DNA of 64,000 bases from Bdellovibrionota bacterium (GTDB lineage: Bacteria; Bdellovibrionota; UBA2394). The translations under genes were made by a program, and so were the position numbers. The stretch covers positions 66,722-130,721 of the forward strand of contig JBILFF010000001.1 of NCBI GenBank assembly GCA_044351695.1, in the 5' to 3' direction. Every line of letters starts with the position of its first letter. Positions within the stretch are counted from its first letter, which is position 1. The notes beneath the pieces were generated by a model that was not told where the DNA came from, searched no databases, and saw only the letters and a program-made list of their open reading frames with translations. This document shows positions 13,354 through 44,846 of the stretch, piece after piece.

Positions 13354-15738
<2,385 letters not shown>

Positions 15739-15762: not shown

Positions 15763-16908
15763 TTAGGAGAGAAGCAAGCCAGCATCCGCCGCTAATTCGG
15801 CATTTATACGGCTTTTTGGAGCATTTGAACTGAGTTCATACGACTGAAAATTAGCAAAGTTTTCCCTCAAATTTTCAATCTTAGTTTTCTCAACAGTGGT
15901 TAAAAACATCTGGCCTGGATAGTGGCTGAGGTAACTTAAAAGCGCCCGTACTCGATCCTCATCAAGCTCTGAAATAATATCATCTAAGAGAAGCAGAGGG
16001 GCTACTTTTTGTGCTTCTCGAGTTAGCTCCAACTGGGCCACTTTTAAGGCAATCACAAGGCTGCGGCACTGGCCCTGACTGGCAAAAGAGCGACTAGCAA
16101 GCCCGTTGATTTTGATCTCCAGATCATCGCGATGCGGCCCAATCAGAGAGTAGCCCACTGCGATTTCAGCTATCCGACGAGACTGAAGGCGCTTTAAAAA
16201 TTCTTCGGCACTGGGAATTTGATCGTTAAATTGGTTTAGGTAATGAAGGCTCAGCTCTTCAGCGACCCCAAAAAGACGATTGTAGATGCGGGGCAGAACC
16301 GGTGACAATTTACTCACCACGGATTCACGAATTTCATACACTCGTATCGCCTCTCGAATAAAAGCTTCATCCCATAAATCAAGTGACGACTGCGAGTGAC
16401 CCTCTTGAAGTTGCTTAAGGAGCCGATTTCGCTGCGTCAGTGTCTTTGCGAATTGGGCGAAGATTGTCGCTATTGAAGGATCTATGTTGATGGCTAAATC
16501 ATCTAAAAAATCGCGCCTTTCGTCCGGCCCGGCTTTAATTAGGCTTAAGTCATCGGGACTAAAAGACACGCTTGTACCTAAAAACTCATATCGTGATCGA
16601 TGATTAATCGCCTTTCCGTCGATCTGTACCCGCTTTCGCTTTTGATCAAAGCCAAACAAAATTTTTGTTGGATAGGGCTTTGTCAGTTCACATGAAATCG
16701 AGGCTTCTTGCTGACCGTAAAGAATCAAATCCTGATTCTTTGAGCTTCTAAAGCTTTTAAATTGAGTAATTAAATAAAGTGATTCGAGGATTGAAGTTTT
16801 ACCCTGTGCATTATGACCAACAATCACATTGAGTTGCGGGCCAAATCCCATGACTTCAAAGAAGCTAAACTTTCGAAACTGAATCAGCTTAAGGGAGTGA
16901 ACTTGAAT
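15763..16908 (-). CDS. recF: DNA replication/repair protein RecF. Proposed AUU start at 16908; the first canonical ATG is at 16851
   Basis: Walker A GHNAQGKTS and the conserved RecF body. The conserved N-terminal beta-strands (IQVHSLKLIQFRKFSFFEV) are encoded in frame upstream of the first ATG, directly after the dnaN stop. Confidence 0.8.
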   Translation of the reverse strand: MQVHSLKLIQFRKFSFFEVMGFGPQLNVIVGHNAQGKTSILESLYLITQFKSFRSSKNQDLILYGQQEASISCELTKPYPTKILFGFDQKRKRVQIDGKAINHRSRYEFLGTSVSFSPDDLSLIKAGPDERRDFLDDLAINIDPSIATIFAQFAKTLTQRNRLLKQLQEGHSQSSLDLWDEAFIREAIRVYEIRESVVSKLSPVLPRIYNRLFGVAEELSLHYLNQFNDQIPSAEEFLKRLQSRRIAEIAVGYSLIGPHRDDLEIKINGLASRSFASQGQCRSLVIALKVAQLELTREAQKVAPLLLLDDIISELDEDRVRALLSYLSHYPGQMFLTTVEKTKIENLRENFANFQSYELSSNAPKSRINAELAADAGLLLS

Positions 16909-16920
16909 ATGCCACCCACT

Positions 16921-18081
16921 TTAATTGGCTTCGCTACCCAATTGCATGGGCATCACAATATTGAGTGAGCCGTCGCTCTTCATTCCTTTAATAAGACTGG
17001 GAGAAAGAACATCGCTCAGTTCAATCACCACATTCTCTTGGTTGTTCATCGCATTCAAAATATCGATAAAGTATCCGGCATTAAAACCGATTTCGATATC
17101 ACTGCCTTGATAATCAATATCTAGATCTTCTTTCGCTTCTCCCAACTTAGGATTGCTTGAAGATAAATGCAGTCGTCCATTCTTCAGTTCAAATCTCACC
17201 GAGCGCGAATGCTCCATCGATAAGACTGAAATTCTTTTTAGAGAATTGAGCAGCTGCTCTCTCTTGATGATTACCCTCTTATCGTTGCTGTCTGGAATGA
17301 CGGGTGTGTAATCAGGAAACTCACCATCCAAGAGACGCATAAATAACTGAATCTGTTGGTTATCTGTCCAAAAAACTGCGTTTGAATTCATCAAACAACA
17401 ATAAAAAGAATCTTCTTCACTCAAAAGACGGCGAAGTTCTGAGAGCCCTTTACGAGGTAAAATGACTCCCTTTTCAAGATCTACTTCGCCTCCGGCCTCA
17501 ACCATTTGATCCATCATCGATAGACGATGCCCATCGGTAGCCACCATTCGAAGATAGTCTTTTCCTTTTTCTTTGAGTCGCTCTAAAAATACGCCGCTCA
17601 AATCATAACGACTTTGATCGTTTGAAACCGCAAAGATCGTATGATCAATCATTTGAGCAAATTGGGATGATGTCAGTTTGAAGGATTTCTCAGAATCGAT
17701 TTGTGGAAGCTGAGGAAACTCATCTGCATCTTGGCCAACTAATTTAAAGACACTCTTGCCCGAGATCAGCTCGATCCAAAAATTATCAAAAATATGAAAC
17801 TGACATTCGCTATCAAGAGGAAGCTCTCGAACTATTTCATAAAGACTTTTTGCAGGCACAGCCACTTTACCAGCTTTACTCACCTTCGCCGGAAAGCTAA
17901 GGCGCAGCCCGACTTCTAAATCTGTGGCACTAAAGATCACGCGATCTTCACCGGCTTCTATGAGTAAATGGCTCAGAATCGGAATCGTATTCTTTTTGTC
18001 CACGACAGACTGAACCCTTTGCAAAGCTTTCAACAAGCTTTCTCGTCCAATCTCAAAGCCGGCTTTTTGATGGCTCTTCAT
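16921..18081 (-). CDS. dnaN: DNA polymerase III beta sliding clamp
   Basis: Three-domain beta-clamp. Classical dnaA-dnaN-recF-gyrB order. Confidence 0.9.
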   Translation of the reverse strand: MKSHQKAGFEIGRESLLKALQRVQSVVDKKNTIPILSHLLIEAGEDRVIFSATDLEVGLRLSFPAKVSKAGKVAVPAKSLYEIVRELPLDSECQFHIFDNFWIELISGKSVFKLVGQDADEFPQLPQIDSEKSFKLTSSQFAQMIDHTIFAVSNDQSRYDLSGVFLERLKEKGKDYLRMVATDGHRLSMMDQMVEAGGEVDLEKGVILPRKGLSELRRLLSEEDSFYCCLMNSNAVFWTDNQQIQLFMRLLDGEFPDYTPVIPDSNDKRVIIKREQLLNSLKRISVLSMEHSRSVRFELKNGRLHLSSSNPKLGEAKEDLDIDYQGSDIEIGFNAGYFIDILNAMNNQENVVIELSDVLSPSLIKGMKSDGSLNIVMPMQLGSEAN

Positions 18082-18150: not shown

Positions 18151-18226
18151 TGGTGGACCGGATCGGGGTCGAACCGACGACCTCTACAATGCCATTGTAG
18201 CGCTCTACCAACTGAGCTACCGGCCC
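18151..18226 (-). tRNA. tRNA-Ala(GGC), CCA encoded
   Basis: Cloverleaf folded by hand: acceptor GGGCCGG/CCGGTCC with the G3:U70 Ala identity pair, anticodon loop AT-GGC-AT, T-loop TTCGACC, 3' CCA. Confidence 0.85.
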
Positions 18227-18834
18227 ACTGAAAGACTCTTCTTCTTACGTGAAAGATTTTCAGATCTCAAATGAGATTCGCTCTGACGCTGTGCGTAATT
18301 ATGCACAAGCTCGCCAGATTCTACTAAGAGGGGCCTTTTAGTTTTAATTTTTTCTAATAGTAGTCGTAGTAGGTACCCCACTTCCCTGTGGAAATGTACT
18401 AACATACTGTAATTATTGACTAATTTATTCACAGCGCCTGTGGAGATTTTATACACAATTTTGGATTTTCAAAAATTTATCCACAATTTCTAAAAATCTC
18501 ACACAGAATTCACAGGCTACACACAGGAGTTATGCACAGGTCTGACAATTTCATGCACAGCTGTGCATAAATACCTGTGCATAAGTCTCTTTTTCCTTCA
18601 TTTATGCACAGCTTTGTCTTCTTGCGGCGCGAGAGCCTGTGCATAACTCCTAATAAATTAAAAAAAATGAGTAATTTCAATAGGATATTATCCACAGGCC
18701 TGTGCATAAATCTGTGCATAAAGTGTGCATAACTGCCAAAATCTGTGCATAAATAATGACAAGCTTTGCTGAGACCAGCAAAAGTGACGACTATAAGTCA
18801 CCTTTAAAAATTGAAAGATTAAAAAAAATAGAAC
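18227..18834. promoter_or_regulatory. Chromosomal origin of replication (oriC) with DnaA-box cluster and AT-rich unwinding element
   Basis: At least 14 copies of TTAT(C/G/A)CACA or TGTGCATAA. Starts: 18299, 18425, 18449, 18477, 18530, 18562, 18576, 18602, 18638, 18688, 18701, 18713, 18724, 18744. AT-rich stretch about 18650-18690. Lies between dnaA and dnaN. Confidence 0.85.
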
Positions 18835-20358
18835 TTAAACGCCTAGATCTCGAATCTGAGTTTCAATTCGACCGAGAGATTCTTTCAGAAAAGGATCCGA
18901 ATCTTGCAATCGTCCAATTCGTCGAACGGCATGCAGAACCGTCGTGTGATTCTTCCCACCAAATAGGGTTCCAATATCGGGCAATGAGAGATTGGTGTAC
19001 TTGCGACACAAAAACATCGCTAACTGTCTGGGAGTAGCGAGTTCACGGGTCTTCTTTTCACCCTTCAGATCGCCGATGCTCAAGCGGTACTGACGAGCGA
19101 CCAGCTTCATGATCTCTTCAGGATCACGAAATACTGGAGAGCCGTCTTGCGACTCCGGTTTTAAAACATTTTTGGCTAATTCTACAGTGATCTCTGATCC
19201 TGAGAGCGAGGCGAAGGCACTCAATTTTAAAAGAGCTCCCTCAAGCTCTCGAATGTTGGACCGATACATTTTAGCTAGAAGAAAAGCCACATCCTCGGAC
19301 AAATTGATTCCATCGGATTCTGCTTTCTTAAAAATAATCGCTACACGAGTCTCCATTTCGGGAGGCTGAATATCCACCAACAATCCCATCTCAAAACGAC
19401 TACGCATACGGTCCTCAAGGCCTTCGATGTCTTTCGGGGGTCGGTCGGAGGAGAGAACAATCTGTTTTTGATGTTCGTAGAGGGCATTAAAGGTATGAAA
19501 AAACTCTTCTTGGGTTCGCTCTTTGCCCTTCACAAATTGAATATCGTCGATAATCAAAACGTCGCAGTTTTTACGATATCGATCTCTAAATTCTTCCATT
19601 TTCTCGAAGCGAATGCTTTCGATCATGTGATTGGTGAACTTTTCAAAGGTCGTATAATGCACGCGCAAAGAGGGGTATCGCTCTTGGATTTTAAGACCAA
19701 TCGCATTTAAGAGATGTGTCTTACCGAGACCAACATCTCCATAGATAAAAAGCGGATTGTAATGTTTACCCGGGGCTTCAGTGACCGTGTAAGCCGCTGC
19801 GTGAGCAAATTGATTACTGGCACCGACCACAAAAGTTTCGAAACCATACTTAGTGTTGAGCACTGTTTCAGAAGAAAGAGTGGAGGGTCCCGTCTTTGAT
19901 GGTCCCGTTGGAGGAACAGCGGACACATTTTTTTTGAGAGTCTGAGCCGAAACCGCCGTGCTTGGTCGAGCCACAGCTCTACCGGGGCTAGAAACCCGCT
20001 TTTGTTCAATCGAGAACTCCAAACGATATTTGGCATTTGAGGCCAAACTAAACTGCTCTTCAATTAAGCCTGAATAGTGGTCGTAGACCCAGTCTCTTGA
20101 AAAACCATTAGGAAATCCTAAAACTAAGGTGTTTTCTTTAGCGCCGAGAAGTCGAATGGTAAGGATAAACGATTGAAAATATTGAGGTCTTACAACTGAC
20201 TCGATCGCCTTGAGGGTCCGATCCCAAGCGACCGCCATGTCCTCTGGGACATTTGATTCCTCGCCTTGATTCTCCTCCTCAGTTCTCATATACCTCACAT
20301 CGATCTTTGGGATACCACCTCGGTGGATCTGCAGTAGGTAGTAACTTGTACTCAGCAT
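18835..20358 (-). CDS. dnaA: Chromosomal replication initiator DnaA. Likely start at an internal Met, about 20238 or 20289
   Basis: AAA+ Walker A GDVGLGKTHLL, sensor motifs, and the C-terminal DnaA-box-binding helix-turn-helix (…ATPRQLAMFLCRKYTNLSLPDIGTLFGGKNHTTVLHAVRRI…). Confidence 0.95.
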   Translation of the reverse strand: MLSTSYYLLQIHRGGIPKIDVRYMRTEEENQGEESNVPEDMAVAWDRTLKAIESVVRPQYFQSFILTIRLLGAKENTLVLGFPNGFSRDWVYDHYSGLIEEQFSLASNAKYRLEFSIEQKRVSSPGRAVARPSTAVSAQTLKKNVSAVPPTGPSKTGPSTLSSETVLNTKYGFETFVVGASNQFAHAAAYTVTEAPGKHYNPLFIYGDVGLGKTHLLNAIGLKIQERYPSLRVHYTTFEKFTNHMIESIRFEKMEEFRDRYRKNCDVLIIDDIQFVKGKERTQEEFFHTFNALYEHQKQIVLSSDRPPKDIEGLEDRMRSRFEMGLLVDIQPPEMETRVAIIFKKAESDGINLSEDVAFLLAKMYRSNIRELEGALLKLSAFASLSGSEITVELAKNVLKPESQDGSPVFRDPEEIMKLVARQYRLSIGDLKGEKKTRELATPRQLAMFLCRKYTNLSLPDIGTLFGGKNHTTVLHAVRRIGRLQDSDPFLKESLGRIETQIRDLGV

Positions 20359-20427: not shown

Positions 20428-20577
20428 ATGAAAAGAACCTTTCAACCCAGCAAGATTCGGCGAAAGCGATCGCACGGTTTTTTGACTAGAATGGCTACAC
20501 CAGGTGGTCGTCGTATTTTATCAAACCGTCGAGCAAAGGGCCGTGCACGCCTTATCCCCACAGTCTACGAAAAGTAA
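20428..20577 (+). CDS. rpmH: 50S ribosomal protein L34
   Basis: [42 protein letters not shown] matches L34 almost residue for residue. Confidence 0.9.
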
Positions 20578-39142: not shown

Positions 39143-40666
39143 TCACAACCATCTGAGGCGCGCTTGTTTTTGAGCGCGCAACTCATCGACACGACGACGA
39201 AAAGTTCGCGTCGGAGCGTGAGCCACGAGTTCGCGATCCGTCTTTACCTCGTTGGCGATTTGAATCATGGCATCACAAAACTCGTCTAGGGCTTCTTTCG
39301 TTTCACTCTCTGTGGGCTCGATAAGCATCGCTCCAGAGACCACCAGCGGAAAGTAAACCGTCATCGGATGATAGCCGTAGTCCATCAGGCGCTTAGCAAT
39401 ATCGAGCGTCTTGATGCCGTACTCTTCTTGAAATCGGTCTGAGATGAGGCACTCGTGCATACAAATTCTTTTAAATGGAATGTCGTAATGATCCTGTAGT
39501 CGAACTCGAATATAATTTGCATTCAGCACAGCTGCTTCGGCTATCTTTCGAAGATAACTCGACTCTCCATCTTCAGTGGTTCCGATCGACAGCATATAGG
39601 TGAGCGCTCGAATATGAATGGCAAAATTACCAAAGTAGCCGCCAATTCGCCCGATGCTATACGGAGCATGATAGTCATATCGAAAGCTTGAACCCTCTCT
39701 GACCACTCGGGGGTTCGGCAAAAACTCTCGAAGATGTTCTCGAACCGCCACTGCGCCCGCGCCAGGACCACCACCTCCGTGGGGGGTTGAGAATGTTTTG
39801 TGTAGGTTGATGTGCATGACATCGACGCCCAAATCTCCCGGTCGAACGATTCCTAAGATCGCGTTAAAGTTTGCCCCGTCCATATAAAAGACGCCGTCAA
39901 CGGCATGAATCAGTTCGGCAATTTCATGAATATGATCTTCAAACAGCCCCAAGGTGTTTGGGTTGGTCATCATGATGCCGGCAACAGACTCATCAATCAG
40001 CGGCTTGATGTCGGCAATCTCAACAACACCCTTAGGATTTGTGGGAATAGAAACAATCTCATATCCCACCATGCTACAGGTAGCGGGGTTCGTGCCATGC
40101 GCTGACTCAGGAATCAGCACTTTTGTTTTTCTGTGATCTTGATTCTTCTTTCGATGATAGGCCTGAATAATTTTGATGCCCGCGTATTCCCCGTGAGCCC
40201 CTGCACTTGGCTGAAGCGTGACTCCGGGTAGGCCGGTGACTCGTGCTAAAAGATCTTCAAGCTCATGCTGAATTTTCATGCCCACTTGCAAAAAACTCTC
40301 ATCCCAAAAGGGGTGCAGCTCAGCAAGCGCGGGCAAGCGCGCAATCTCTTCGTTGATTTTAGGATTATACTTCATGGTGCAGCTGCCGAGAGGATAGAGT
40401 CCCAAATCAATCGCGTAATTTTTTTGCGAAAGGCGGGTGTAGTGTCGGACTACTTCATTTTCGCTGATCTCTGGAAAGCCTGCGACTTCGCTTCTCACTA
40501 AAGAAGCCTTCCATTGCTTGCTGGCCTCTGCTTGCGGAACATCTAGCGGTGCAAAGCTAAATCCTCGTCTGCCCGTCACGCTTTTGTCAAAGAGGGTAGG
40601 CTCTTCGAAGGTGGTAACCTGACCAAGCCTTGGATGACTTTCGAGTTTAGGATTGTCTTTTGTCAT
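39143..40666 (-). CDS. gcvPB: Glycine dehydrogenase (decarboxylating) subunit 2. Start taken as the Met overlapping the gcvPA stop
   Basis: PLP-dependent GcvP C-terminal half (…NLHKTFSTPHGGGGPG…). Confidence 0.9.
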   Translation of the reverse strand: MTKDNPKLESHPRLGQVTTFEEPTLFDKSVTGRRGFSFAPLDVPQAEASKQWKASLVRSEVAGFPEISENEVVRHYTRLSQKNYAIDLGLYPLGSCTMKYNPKINEEIARLPALAELHPFWDESFLQVGMKIQHELEDLLARVTGLPGVTLQPSAGAHGEYAGIKIIQAYHRKKNQDHRKTKVLIPESAHGTNPATCSMVGYEIVSIPTNPKGVVEIADIKPLIDESVAGIMMTNPNTLGLFEDHIHEIAELIHAVDGVFYMDGANFNAILGIVRPGDLGVDVMHINLHKTFSTPHGGGGPGAGAVAVREHLREFLPNPRVVREGSSFRYDYHAPYSIGRIGGYFGNFAIHIRALTYMLSIGTTEDGESSYLRKIAEAAVLNANYIRVRLQDHYDIPFKRICMHECLISDRFQEEYGIKTLDIAKRLMDYGYHPMTVYFPLVVSGAMLIEPTESETKEALDEFCDAMIQIANEVKTDRELVAHAPTRTFRRRVDELRAQKQARLRWL

Positions 40667-42000
40667 TTGGACATCGCCCCCACGAAGGCGGCCATTTTTT
40701 GAATGTCCTCTTTGCTGTGCATCTCGCTCACGTGAATCAATAGTCGATGTTTCCATGAATCCTTAAACCTCCCGAGGTCAACGCCCACCACCCACGACTC
40801 TTCGGCGGCTTTTCGAACGACTTGTGCCGCGGGGATGGAGAGCTCGCATGTGAACTCATTAAAAGTGGGGCCCTCAAGAACACCAACGCCCGCTTTCTTA
40901 AGAGTGGACTTGGCAAACTCCGCTTTCGAAAAATTAATTTGTGCCAACTCGCGCATGCCCACTTTGCCCAAGCTTGCTAAATGAAACAATCCAGCCAGCA
41001 TGTTGAGATTGTTATTGGTACAAATGTTAGAGGTTGCTCGTCCCCGACGAATAAACTGCTCGCGGGTGGCGAAGGTGAGCGTGTAGCTGCGGCGGCCCTC
41101 TTCATCTAAGGTTTCACCCACCAATCGGCCCGGCAGGTTTCTCAGATATTCGTTTCTCGTGCAAAAAATTCCAAAACTAGATCCGCCCAAGTAGGGGCCG
41201 TTACCAAAAGAGGAGCCCTCACCCGTCACAATATGAGCACCAAAAGCTCCAGGCCCTCGGAGCAGTCCCCAAACCAAGGGCTCCATGGTGGAGCTAATCC
41301 AAAAAGCCCCGCGCTCTTTGACGATGCGACCAATCTCTTCATCGTCTTCAATGAGACCAAAAACATTCGGGCTTTGCGTGATAAGAATATCACCCTCTTC
41401 TAAGCGGCCCCGCAAGTCCTTCGCATCGATTCGACCCGAGCTTGAGGCAAAATCTGCAAGCCTTTCTTTAAAGGGATCGGAGTAAGATCGAACCACCTCT
41501 TGATAGTTGGGGTGTACATTGTCGGGCATCCAGATCTTGCTCGTTGTTTTCTTTTGAATTCTCACAGCCATCAGCACGGCCTCGCCGAGCGAGGTGGCGC
41601 CGTCGTAGAGCGAAGCATTTGAAAGCTCTGTCTCGGTGAGCTGACACGCCAGCGTTTGATACTCAAAAATACACTGAAGGGTGCCTTGAGAAATCTCGGG
41701 CTGGTAGGGCGTATAAGAGGTGGCGAACTCTGATCGCATCTGAAGAGTCGGAACAATGCTCGGCACGTCGTGTTGATAAATTCCGCAGCCCGCAAAACTG
41801 ATCGTGGGACGGGGGTGTGCTGCGAGCAGCTCTTTAAACTTCTTTCGCAACTCAAACTCAGAGTGTGCACGGGGATAATCGATTTTTTTGGGAAGCCGAT
41901 GCTGTTTGGGAATGGCCTCAAAGAGCTCGTCGACGGACTGCACACCGACCTTGGACAGCAGAGCTGTCTGATCGCTTGAGGACTGCGGAATGTACTTCAT
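40663..42000 (-). CDS. gcvPA: Glycine dehydrogenase (decarboxylating) subunit 1
   Basis: GcvP N-terminal half. Operon position. Confidence 0.9.
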   Translation of the reverse strand: MKYIPQSSSDQTALLSKVGVQSVDELFEAIPKQHRLPKKIDYPRAHSEFELRKKFKELLAAHPRPTISFAGCGIYQHDVPSIVPTLQMRSEFATSYTPYQPEISQGTLQCIFEYQTLACQLTETELSNASLYDGATSLGEAVLMAVRIQKKTTSKIWMPDNVHPNYQEVVRSYSDPFKERLADFASSSGRIDAKDLRGRLEEGDILITQSPNVFGLIEDDEEIGRIVKERGAFWISSTMEPLVWGLLRGPGAFGAHIVTGEGSSFGNGPYLGGSSFGIFCTRNEYLRNLPGRLVGETLDEEGRRSYTLTFATREQFIRRGRATSNICTNNNLNMLAGLFHLASLGKVGMRELAQINFSKAEFAKSTLKKAGVGVLEGPTFNEFTCELSIPAAQVVRKAAEESWVVGVDLGRFKDSWKHRLLIHVSEMHSKEDIQKMAAFVGAMSK

Positions 42001-42466: not shown

Positions 42467-43636
42467 TTATTGAACCTGTGCCGCCTTTGAAGGTCCTGCC
42501 GAAGCCGGAACCCTGCGCTTAACTCTCGAAGTCTCAACAAACGGTGCCAGAACCATTCGGGCTTCCCGTTGCCGTCCTCCGCTATCAACTAAACATATGA
42601 TTCCGTCAGGTGATGGATCTAAGTCAAGCGAAGCGAGTATCAAACCCACGCCCATACCCTTCTTTAAAACGGGCGAATAAGAGCCGCTAGTGAGCGCGCC
42701 TATTTCTTTGCCGCGAACCCAAATTCGTTCTCCTGCGCGCATGGGTTTTGGGCTGTCAGCCAGCAAACAAATGGGGCGCCAGCGAGCCGGGCCTTGAGCA
42801 GCATTTTTGCCCAAAAAATCTGACTTCGCGCTTACCGCAAAATGCGCCAGAGTTTCGCCAGGATGAAGCTCATCCGAAAGCTCGTGGCCATAAAGCGGAA
42901 AGCAAACCTCAAGGCGCAAAGTATCTCGCGCACCCAAACCAATCGGCACCACTCCTTGCGAAAAAAGCCATTCCCAAAGTTCAAGAGCCTTTGAGGGGGG
43001 CAAAAAGATCTCCAGCCCGTCTTCACCTGTGTAGCCTGTATGGCTTAAAATCGCTTCTTCATGCTTTTTAAAGGCATAGTAGCGTAGCGATTGGAGGCTT
43101 CCGTATCGACGCTCCAAAATCTCAAGTGCTGTGGGCCCCTGAACGGCAATCAAAGCCCATCGATCACTTTCATCGACCAATTGAACGCTAAAGCCCTTGG
43201 CCTGCTGAGAGAGGTGTAAAAAGTCCTTTTGAATATTGGCGGCATTTACCACCATGAAGAACTCTTTATCGCTTAAGCGATAAACAATCACATCATCCAC
43301 AATGCCGCCGTGTTCGTGAAGAAGTAGGCAGTATTGGGCTCGGCCAGGCTCCATTGAGTCCACCGGCCTCGTGCAGACGCGATTCAGAAACTTACTTGCC
43401 CCATCGCCATGAATGCGAAACTCGCCCATGTGGGACACATCAAACATGCCCGCCGATTCGCGGACTTTCAGGTGTTCATTCTTCATGCCGCCCGATACGG
43501 GGTCGTAAGAAATCGGCATATCAAAGCCGGCAAACTCAGCCATCCGAGCGCCTGAGCGCAAATGCCATTCATGCAAAACGGTTTTTTTAAGCACCACCAC
43601 CTTTTTAGGGCTTCGAAAGCTTAGCGTCAACAGCAT
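42467..43636 (-). CDS. gcvT: Glycine cleavage system aminomethyltransferase T
   Basis: …LKKTVLHEWHLRSGARMAEFAGFDMPISY… N-terminus and fold-specific motifs. Confidence 0.9.
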   Translation of the reverse strand: MLLTLSFRSPKKVVVLKKTVLHEWHLRSGARMAEFAGFDMPISYDPVSGGMKNEHLKVRESAGMFDVSHMGEFRIHGDGASKFLNRVCTRPVDSMEPGRAQYCLLLHEHGGIVDDVIVYRLSDKEFFMVVNAANIQKDFLHLSQQAKGFSVQLVDESDRWALIAVQGPTALEILERRYGSLQSLRYYAFKKHEEAILSHTGYTGEDGLEIFLPPSKALELWEWLFSQGVVPIGLGARDTLRLEVCFPLYGHELSDELHPGETLAHFAVSAKSDFLGKNAAQGPARWRPICLLADSPKPMRAGERIWVRGKEIGALTSGSYSPVLKKGMGVGLILASLDLDPSPDGIICLVDSGGRQREARMVLAPFVETSRVKRRVPASAGPSKAAQVQ

Positions 43637-43730: not shown

Positions 43731-44846
43731 ATGGGCGTTCCAATTTCGCAAATGTACACAGTGGCCTCTTACGTTCTGAAGCAAAAAATTTCGGGGCGAA
43801 AACGATACCCGTTGGTTTTAATGCTCGAGCCCTTGTTTCGCTGCAACTTATCTTGTGCTGGCTGCGGAAAGATTCAGTACCCTGAACATATTCTGAAAAA
43901 GCGCTTATCGCCGGAGGAGTGTTTTAGGGCGGCCGACGAGTGCGGTGCTCCGATTGTGAGCATTCCGGGTGGTGAGCCCCTCCTTCACCCCGAGATCAAA
44001 GAGATCGTCGAGGGTTTGGTCGCTCGTAAAAAATATATTTATCTTTGCACCAATGCGATTTTGCTGAAGTCGAAAATCGATCTCTTTAAGCCGACCAAAT
44101 ATCTGAGTTTTTCTGTTCATATGGATGGTCTCAAGCACGAGCATGATGAGGCGGTTTGTCGCGAGGGGGTTTACGACAAGGCGATTGAGGGCATCAAAGA
44201 AGCCCTCTCCAGAGGCTTTCGAGTCACCACCAACACCACGTTGTTTGATGGGGCCAAATCAGAGCGCGTGCGCGAGTTTTTTGATGAGATGATGCGCCTC
44301 GGTGTTGAGGGAATGATGGTTTCACCGGGCTATAGTTATCCAAAGGCTCCCGACCAAGATAACTTTTTAGAGCGCAAAAAAACCTATGAGCTTTTTAGGA
44401 AAATTCTTTTCAAGGCAAAGCGCAGCTGGAGGTTTAATCAGTCACCGCTGTTCCTCGAGTATTTGGCGGGCTCAAGACATTTTGAGTGTACTCCTTGGGG
44501 GAATCCGACCTTCAATGTGTTTGGCTGGCAAAAGCCCTGCTACCTTTTGCAAGAGGGGTACGCCAAAGGATTTCAAGAAATGATGGATACGACGGATTGG
44601 GATCAGTACGGCCAAAAAAGCGGAAACCCCTCTTGTGCCAATTGCATGGTTCACTGCGGCCACGAGCCGACGGCGGTCGACTACACTTTTGGATCGTGGA
44701 GAGGGTTTTTTGATACCGTTCGCGCGACACTATCGGGACTTCAGATCAAATCACCGCATTCTAAGGAGATGCCTATTCTTCCGAAGCGCGCACATTTTGA
44801 AAAAAACAAATCGATGATTGAAGAAAAGAGAGTCGCCAATGGCTGA
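43731..44846 (+). CDS. HpnH-like radical SAM protein (adenosylhopane-synthase family homolog)
   Basis: CNLSCAGC radical-SAM cluster within …RYPLVLMLEPLFRCNLSCAGCGKIQYP…, plus …CTPWGNPTFNVFGWQKPCYLL… and …CANCMVHCGHE…. From memory these closely match HpnH (TIGR03470-type). Confidence 0.7.
   Translation: MGVPISQMYTVASYVLKQKISGRKRYPLVLMLEPLFRCNLSCAGCGKIQYPEHILKKRLSPEECFRAADECGAPIVSIPGGEPLLHPEIKEIVEGLVARKKYIYLCTNAILLKSKIDLFKPTKYLSFSVHMDGLKHEHDEAVCREGVYDKAIEGIKEALSRGFRVTTNTTLFDGAKSERVREFFDEMMRLGVEGMMVSPGYSYPKAPDQDNFLERKKTYELFRKILFKAKRSWRFNQSPLFLEYLAGSRHFECTPWGNPTFNVFGWQKPCYLLQEGYAKGFQEMMDTTDWDQYGQKSGNPSCANCMVHCGHEPTAVDYTFGSWRGFFDTVRATLSGLQIKSPHSKEMPILPKRAHFEKNKSMIEEKRVANG

Follow-up and report, generated by a model that had tools for sequence, protein, structure and literature searches.

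Which codon starts recF when its reading frame holds no ATG, GTG, or TTG between the stop codon of dnaN and a codon that lies inside the conserved N-terminus of the protein? This question is raised by the dnaN-recF junction of a Bdellovibrionota bacterium (assembly GCA_044351695.1, contig JBILFF010000001.1). The window, the whole stretch of DNA that was analysed, comprises 64,000 nucleotides (positions 66,722 to 130,721 of the contig), and all coordinates below are those of the window. A preliminary description had noted that recF lacks a canonical start after dnaN and had proposed an ATT codon, 12 nt past the dnaN stop, as its initiation codon; a re-reading of the sequence agreed with this throughout. 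Judged from sequence comparison, and with a probability of about 0.85, full-length recF initiates at ATT 16908-16906, which is conserved among relatives and lies behind a Shine-Dalgarno (SD)-like sequence.

The features of the junction and of recF are as follows.

16921-18081, minus strand: dnaN coding sequence, DNA polymerase III beta clamp (open reading frame (ORF) list; TIGR00663, 314 bits)
16923-16921, minus strand: dnaN stop codon TAA, which directly precedes recF and is here in the same frame as recF
16917-16912, minus strand: SD-like GGGTGG, 3 nt before the ATT
16916-16913, minus strand: GGTG core of GGGTGG, 4 nt before the ATT
16908-16906, minus strand: ATT, proposed AUU start codon of recF, 12 nt past the dnaN stop
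16852-16905, minus strand: recF codons 2-19 (QVHSLKLIQFRKFSFFEV), predicted beta-strands 1 and 2 of the ATPase head, including R12 and F14
16851-16849, minus strand: first in-frame ATG (Met20), the start chosen by automatic annotation for a 362-residue product (P0001, Joint Genome Institute (JGI) gene call)
16795-16818, minus strand: Walker A motif GHNAQGKT, residues 31-38 counting from the ATT
15763-16908, minus strand: proposed full-length recF coding sequence, 381 codons plus the stop codon at 15765-15763

After the dnaN TAA, the recF frame reads AGT GGG TGG CAT ATT CAA GTT CAC TCC CTT AAG CTG ATT and continues CAG TTT CGA AAG TTT AGC TTC TTT GAA GTC ATG. On the minus strand no ATG, GTG, or TTG was found in this frame between the dnaN TAA and ATG 16851, and the GTGs within AGTGGGTGG are out of the recF frame.

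The N-terminal stretch of RecF

The product of the reading frame was compared with TIGR00611, the NCBIfam equivalog profile of RecF, an ATPase of the SMC/ABC type. Initiated at the ATT, the protein scored 314.3 bits (cut-off 172) and matched profile positions 2-339 of 339, beginning at its residue 4. Initiated at ATG 16851, it scored 305.1 bits and the alignment began at profile position 19, which bears out the earlier claim that a start at this ATG would drop the conserved N-terminus of RecF. The RecF Walker A motif, GxNxxGK(T/S), was present as GHNAQGKT (residues 31-38), and the Walker B/D-loop motif, LLLDDxxSELD, was present as LLLDDIISELD (residues 306-316). The columns of both motifs were invariant in alignments A2 and A3, the latter made up of 53 RecF sequences spanning several phyla, in which the Walker A residues G31, N33, G36, and K37 were invariant. 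The beta-hairpin motif that precedes Walker A, L-x-L-x-x-F-R, was found as SLKLIQFRKF at residues 5-14, and it is contained only in the ATT-initiated form. Solved RecF structures also matched, with residue 3 of 8a8j chain A pairing with query residue 7 onward.

Related recF loci were collected by a genome scan, a metagenome scan (17 loci), and look-ups of individual database proteins. The clade sample consisted of 25 distinct loci with 45-69% protein identity to the RecF of the window, taken from records labelled Bacteriovoracaceae, Bdellovibrionota, 'Deltaproteobacteria', or Bradymonadales metagenome-assembled genomes and from metagenome contigs. Among these 25 sequences, R12 and F14 were invariant and K7 and L8 were nearly so; R12, which belongs to the FRK motif, was also invariant in the 53-sequence alignment. 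The nucleotide entropy of codons 2-20 in the clade sequences was 1.28/0.68/1.54 at codon positions 1/2/3, compared with a flat value of about 1.8 in all three phases for the 30 nt upstream of the start, and codons 2-20 therefore vary as coding sequence does. The AlphaFold2 model of RecF (mean predicted local distance difference test score (pLDDT) 91.7, predicted template modelling score 0.88) placed beta-strands at residues 2-11 and 14-20, with pLDDT of 95-97, upstream of Met20. As judged from the alignments and this model, the 19 codons before ATG 16851 are shown to be protein-coding and structurally essential, and the ATG itself probably encodes an internal methionine of RecF.

The alternative is that the annotated ATG 16851 is the true start; RecF would then have 362 residues and lack the first 19, and the in-frame sequence upstream would be an untranslated spacer. 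This ATG is the first canonical start and was picked by automatic annotation, which placed the start of many relatives at internal codons too. However, the Met20 column is hypervariable, with Met in the window only and N, K, D, R, E, G, P, Q, S, or T in the relatives. Their first canonical codon is often found only within Walker A or 1-5 codons ahead of it, and some have none at all (L004, L011, L089, and L090). The supposed spacer is conserved in the style of a coding sequence, with R12 and F14 invariant, and the AlphaFold2 model folds it, with high confidence, into two beta-strands of the ATPase head. The ATG also has no strong SD sequence; the SD-like element, at a distance of 61 nt upstream, is beside the ATT. 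A start at ATG 16851 is therefore considered very unlikely.

Start codon and ribosome-binding site in related loci

The preliminary description had aligned the ATT with Met1 of RecF homologs and had suggested a comparison of the junction across related genomes. The alignment held in both the profile and the clade alignment, and the Walker A glycine lay exactly 30 codons past the homologous start codon in 25 of 25 clade loci. The codon at this position was distributed as follows.

ATT: 18 of 25 loci, including the closest relative, L100 (69% identity)
ATC: 1 of 25 (L011)
ATA: 1 of 25 (L091, with a TTG two codons upstream)
TTG: 2 of 25 (L005, L083)
GTG: 2 of 25 (L085 group, L107)
ATG: 1 of 25 (L010)

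Leucine was always encoded by TTG and valine always by GTG, which indicates that the start column holds initiator-capable codons only (table 11). In-frame stops were located 3-87 nt upstream of the homologous codon in the clade loci, and the ATT and ATC loci had no canonical start between such a stop and the homologous codon. In a neighbour-joining tree, ATT occurred on all major branches and the canonical codons were scattered tips; ATT is therefore ancestral and has been retained. An outgroup of recF loci from Bacillota, Myxococcota/Bradymonadales, Nitrospirota, and Acidobacteriota was also analysed. All 70 of these loci had ATG, GTG, or TTG 28-33 codons before the Walker A glycine, and among the loci sampled the recF AUU was thus confined to the lineage of the window. 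Chance would hardly give such a contrast.

It could be argued that an original ATG has been turned into ATT by faulty sequencing or assembly, or by a mutation particular to this strain, given that ATT is one base from ATG and that five relatives carry a canonical codon. However, the junction was identical, ATT included, on the contigs of Logan SRR27426722 and JGI 3300044729, two other sample accessions. Of the 25 distinct sequences, which stem from many unrelated projects, 18 had ATT, L100 among them, and ATT was spread over the whole tree. The base-call error about which the preliminary description had been concerned is hence unlikely, and its probability, together with that of a strain-specific mutation, is in our view practically negligible: canonical codons occur in a minority of relatives, but the ATT of this genome is the majority codon, ancestral, and reproduced in other assemblies.

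The pairing of the 20 nt before the start with the anti-SD sequence was calculated for the clade loci. The median was -7.4 kcal/mol, as against -3.3 kcal/mol when a 20-nt stretch was taken ahead of 331 internal in-frame ATT codons in these genes (Mann-Whitney p = 1.5e-9). The GGGTGG that had been seen just upstream of the ATT was indeed located 3 nt before it (16917-16912), and the anti-SD duplex of recF in the window was -9.8 kcal/mol, which is in the best 1% of the 331 controls and, among random 20-mers from the window, in the best 4%. GGTG placed exactly 4 nt before the ATT was common to the window, L100, and L101, and more distant clade members had GGAG or GAGG 5-9 nt before the start codon. 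Pairing of -6 kcal/mol or lower was found at about half of the ATG-ORF starts in the window vs 21% of random sites, which indicates that this organism uses SD sequences.

Two other codons and one regulatory structure were considered and rejected. The in-frame CTG 16887 and ATT 16884 lie 24-27 nt from the SD sequence and are not aligned with Met1. In the minimum free energy structure of the junction, GCCCAU of dnaN pairs with GUGGGU, which would give a hairpin that hides the SD sequence until dnaN is translated; the z-score was -0.85, 40 of 200 shuffled sequences folded as well, and such a hairpin cannot form in relatives with GGAG-type SD sequences. A search of Rfam found no RNA family at the dnaN-recF junction.

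The position of recF relative to dnaN was also compared. In each of the 22 clade loci compared, recF directly followed dnaN, the gap ranging from -4 to 60 nt, and the 12 nt between stop and start in the window is a short distance, as in a coupled gene pair. The dnaN TAA (16923-16921) is in the recF frame, just four sense codons before the ATT, which would allow a DnaN-RecF fusion to be made by readthrough of this stop. However, the frame relation is not kept in the clade: the dnaN stop had an offset of 0, 1, or 2 relative to recF in 11, 6, and 5 of the 22 loci, so that the in-frame TAA of the window is coincidental and a readthrough fusion is unsupported. Further in-frame stops were found between dnaN and recF in several loci, and no recoding signal was seen at the junction (fold z-score -0.85). 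TAA is, in addition, the least leaky stop codon. A fusion protein is thus exceedingly unlikely.

A variant of initiation at the ATT, with the same start site, is that the AUU is used mainly by termination-reinitiation, with ribosomes at the end of dnaN sliding 12 nt and restarting there; RecF would then be a fixed small fraction of DnaN output and not a product of independent de novo initiation. The constant presence of dnaN directly upstream in every clade locus examined is consistent with this. The TTG and GTG members show the classic coupled arrangement, an overlapping or 3-nt stop/start with a weak SD sequence: L083 and L084 have a TTGA stop/start overlap with dnaN (SD of L083, -3.1 kcal/mol), and L085, L086, and L102 have TAG-TCG-GTG with a 3-nt gap (SD of L085, -3.9 kcal/mol). 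E. coli reporters with short gaps, the UAA-GGU-AUU of infC among them, owed about as much to reinitiation as to de novo initiation (PMC3592434). However, the ATT members, unlike L083 and L085, have strong SD sequences and longer gaps, up to 60 nt, which favour de novo initiation, and reinitiation decays with distance (PMC3592434). Reinitiation as the main route is possible but doubtful. The strength of the start codon and the strength of the SD sequence or of the coupling may compensate for each other, but canonical-start members are few and L005, L010, and L107 depart from this pattern.

Several points weigh against initiation at the ATT or against the importance given to it here. All clade members are uncultured metagenome-assembled genomes or metagenome contigs. 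A canonical start codon was present in 5 of 25 relatives, and ATT is therefore not obligatory. ATT was preferred over ATC and ATA in 15 of 17 cases (22-sequence sample), compared with a background isoleucine codon usage of 64-74% (p = 0.03-0.15, phylogeny ignored); the preference is not clearly above this background, nor significant when codon usage is taken into account. The anti-SD tail was assumed to be standard, as the window contains no 16S rRNA gene. Additional initiation at Met20 may take place alongside that at the ATT, and the low expression expected for RecF is extrapolated from E. coli.

Annotation and neighbouring features

Large ORFs with at least 8 open codons before the first canonical start made up 14 of 51 in the window. 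The 13 of these other than recF were scanned from stop to stop against NCBIfam, and none required an earlier start. For GcvPA, GcvT, HpnH, IspF, RNase HI, ParA, AtpH, and DnaN, the profile began at or after the canonical codon, and for AtpF and PurK the ambiguity of the start was at most 5 residues, with weak alignments. Relaxed start-codon use throughout the genome was thus rejected, as on the basis of profiles recF alone among the 14 ORFs needs a substantially earlier start. infC, which was considered as an internal control, was not found within the window.

We also analysed the RecF entries of the clade in public databases. Because gene callers ignore ATT, most of these entries are N-terminally short, by 19 to 60 or more residues. 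Truncated entries include P0005, P0006, P0009, P0013, P0019, P0021, P0023, P0026, P0030, P0036, and P0040, the proteins of loci L006, L007, L094, L100, L101, and L103-L105, and others. They begin at an internal GTG, TTG, or ATG (for example MGNNAQGKT, VIVGKNAQGKT, and MEALSL), and some truncations fall within or past Walker A. The 362-residue product called on the contig studied here is one of them. The NCBI protein P0014 (locus L004; MLVTSLKL...) already starts with M at the ATT. The truncated entries lack the two beta-strands and the invariant arginine, and some are also without Walker A; structure predictions, family models, and calls of presence or absence that draw on them would be misled.

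At the other end of the protein, the RecF C-termini of the clade (L003-L107; window 15766-15870, residues ~347-381) formed a tail of 20-35 residues with low pLDDT past the RecF profile, and the outgroup RecF proteins were without it. The tail often closed with a short hydrophobic motif, such as GLLLS, DLRFS, DLRIS, or PLNLS, and other endings were QNLFS, KFPLF, SLALS, and TLGF. There is a loose resemblance to a C-terminal peptide of the clamp-binding type, but such a role is pure speculation.

The genes are arranged in the order dnaA-dnaN-recF-gyrB, all on the minus strand, and the two outer genes are the following.

13354-15735, minus strand: gyrB (ORF list; Pfam families on JGI gene calls of the same contig), with a 27-nt gap after recF
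18835-20358, minus strand: dnaA (ORF list)

The longest dnaA ORF (18835-20358, minus strand) begins at ATG 20358 with an odd leader, MLSTSYYLLQIHRGGIPKIDVRYMRTEEEN..., and dnaA may in fact begin at an ATG further downstream. rpmH (L34) is divergent from dnaA at ~20428-20577 on the plus strand. In the dnaA-dnaN intergenic region, 14 DnaA-box-like 9-mers were found on both strands between 18299 and 18752 (two of TTATCCACA, ten of TTATGCACA, one of TTATTCACA, and one of TTATACACA), and the whole window contained 26 such matches vs 8.6 expected. The cluster at 18299-18752 is very likely oriC. Two ORFs overlap it, 18217-18456 (a JGI-called gene without a Pfam match) and 18510-18719, and both are probably spurious. 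A tRNA-Ala(GGC) gene was located at 18151-18226 on the minus strand, between the DnaA-box cluster and the start of dnaN (18081). Elsewhere in the window, a strong match to HpnH (adenosyl-hopene transferase) at 43731-44846 on the plus strand (TIGR03470, 544 bits) implies, by sequence, hopanoid side-chain biosynthesis in this organism. Glycine-cleavage genes adjoin hpnH on the opposite strand (gcvT, 42467-43636; gcvPA, 40663-42000).

Expected expression of RecF from the proposed AUU start

Translation from AUU 16908-16906 would yield a 381-residue RecF with (f)Met as its first residue. The 30S subunit would be positioned by pairing of GGGUGG/GGUG with the anti-SD tail of 16S rRNA, with a possible contribution from ribosomes fresh from termination at the UAA of dnaN, 12 nt upstream. 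The initiator tRNA would read the AUU with a third-position mismatch. Initiation factor 3 (IF3) is expected to disfavour such AUU complexes, so that RecF synthesis would be well below that of the co-transcribed DnaN and sensitive to IF3. In E. coli reporters the AUU codon gave 1-2% of the expression from AUG (bioRxiv 10.1101/063800), or was 6-8-fold below AUG (PMC3592434), and excess IF3 inhibits non-canonical starts (PMC2268962). The IF3-dependent repression expected here is drawn from this E. coli work (PMC2268962, PMC5499595). We infer that initiation does take place at the AUU, that the codon serves to hold RecF at a low level, and that the expression of RecF responds to IF3.

The AUU start of infC is almost universal in bacteria. 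As in recF, this conserved AUU replaces AUG a few nucleotides past the stop codon of the preceding gene and follows an SD sequence, and the E. coli infC junction reads UAA GGU AUU (PMC3592434). By analogy, reduced and IF3-sensitive initiation would be expected for both genes. The preliminary description had expected an expression that is low and autoregulatable, as for infC. The first part stands to the extent that low, IF3-sensitive expression can be carried over from E. coli. However, autoregulation does not transfer to RecF: it arises in infC because IF3 itself discriminates against AUU, so that the infC product is the discriminator in its own autoregulatory loop, and no such loop is expected for RecF. 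We know of no role of RecF in translation initiation. The infC AUU is also nearly universal, whereas the recF AUU was found in this lineage only (0 of 70 outgroup loci).

Other unusual starts were compared with that of recF. Two confirmed AUU starts are known in E. coli, those of infC and pcnB (bioRxiv 10.1101/063800). The AUU of pcnB, which encodes poly(A) polymerase I, is credited to Binns and Masters (2002) in the later papers that cite it (PMC2830850; bioRxiv 10.1101/063800). As far as these papers relate it, pcnB resembles recF in that a poor AUU limits a protein needed scarcely, the pcnB product being harmful in excess, and in that the start codon differs among orthologues of other taxa. 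By the same accounts, the pcnB AUU was verified experimentally, whereas that of recF, another gene in another taxon, rests on comparison.

In Deinococcus, an ATC start of dnaA was proven by N-terminal (TMPP) proteomics (PMC2830850). Like that of recF, it is a lineage-conserved AUH start in the dnaA-dnaN-recF neighbourhood that was missed by automatic annotation, and its re-annotation restores a conserved N-terminus; it differs from the recF start in its codon, ATC and not ATT, and in the gene, dnaA. Deinococcus recF has a GTG start on a leaderless mRNA (PMC4007540). In Enterococcus faecalis, the ATT start of ebpA was shown by mutagenesis (PMC4447247). As in recF, an annotated in-frame ATG follows downstream of this ATT, which in ebpA attenuates expression; unlike recF, ebpA is a surface pilus gene, and its ATT is not a lineage-wide feature of a housekeeping gene. 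E. coli recF is said to be translationally limited, and in 1990 Sandler and Clark reportedly described an ATG with a poor ribosome-binding site and inhibitory sequences in its coding region. By this account E. coli recF, in the same dnaA-dnaN-recF context, is likewise kept low after transcription, with an ATG and a poor ribosome-binding site there vs a good SD sequence and a poor start codon here. The literature search found no report of an AUU or ATT start in recF, and the lone match, Nostoc recF, has ATG.

A wider role of the AUU can be put forward tentatively, although we consider it rather unlikely. The codon would be a selected set-point device, kept since the origin of the Bdellovibrionota-affiliated lineage, that links the abundance of RecF to the fidelity of initiation in the cell, as set by IF3 activity, and through it to growth rate or stress, and that fixes the RecF:DnaN ratio on the shared mRNA, the strengths of start codon and SD sequence or coupling compensating for each other. 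If this were true, recF would be a further broadly conserved member of the AUU regulon beside infC, and translation status would be linked to recombinational gap repair. With its conserved AUU, recF would bring a DNA-repair gene into the small group of bacterial genes whose AUU starts are well supported and conserved in a lineage. It would also provide a natural system for the trade-offs among a weak start, SD strength, and coupling by which a protein is kept scarce beside a highly expressed operon partner.

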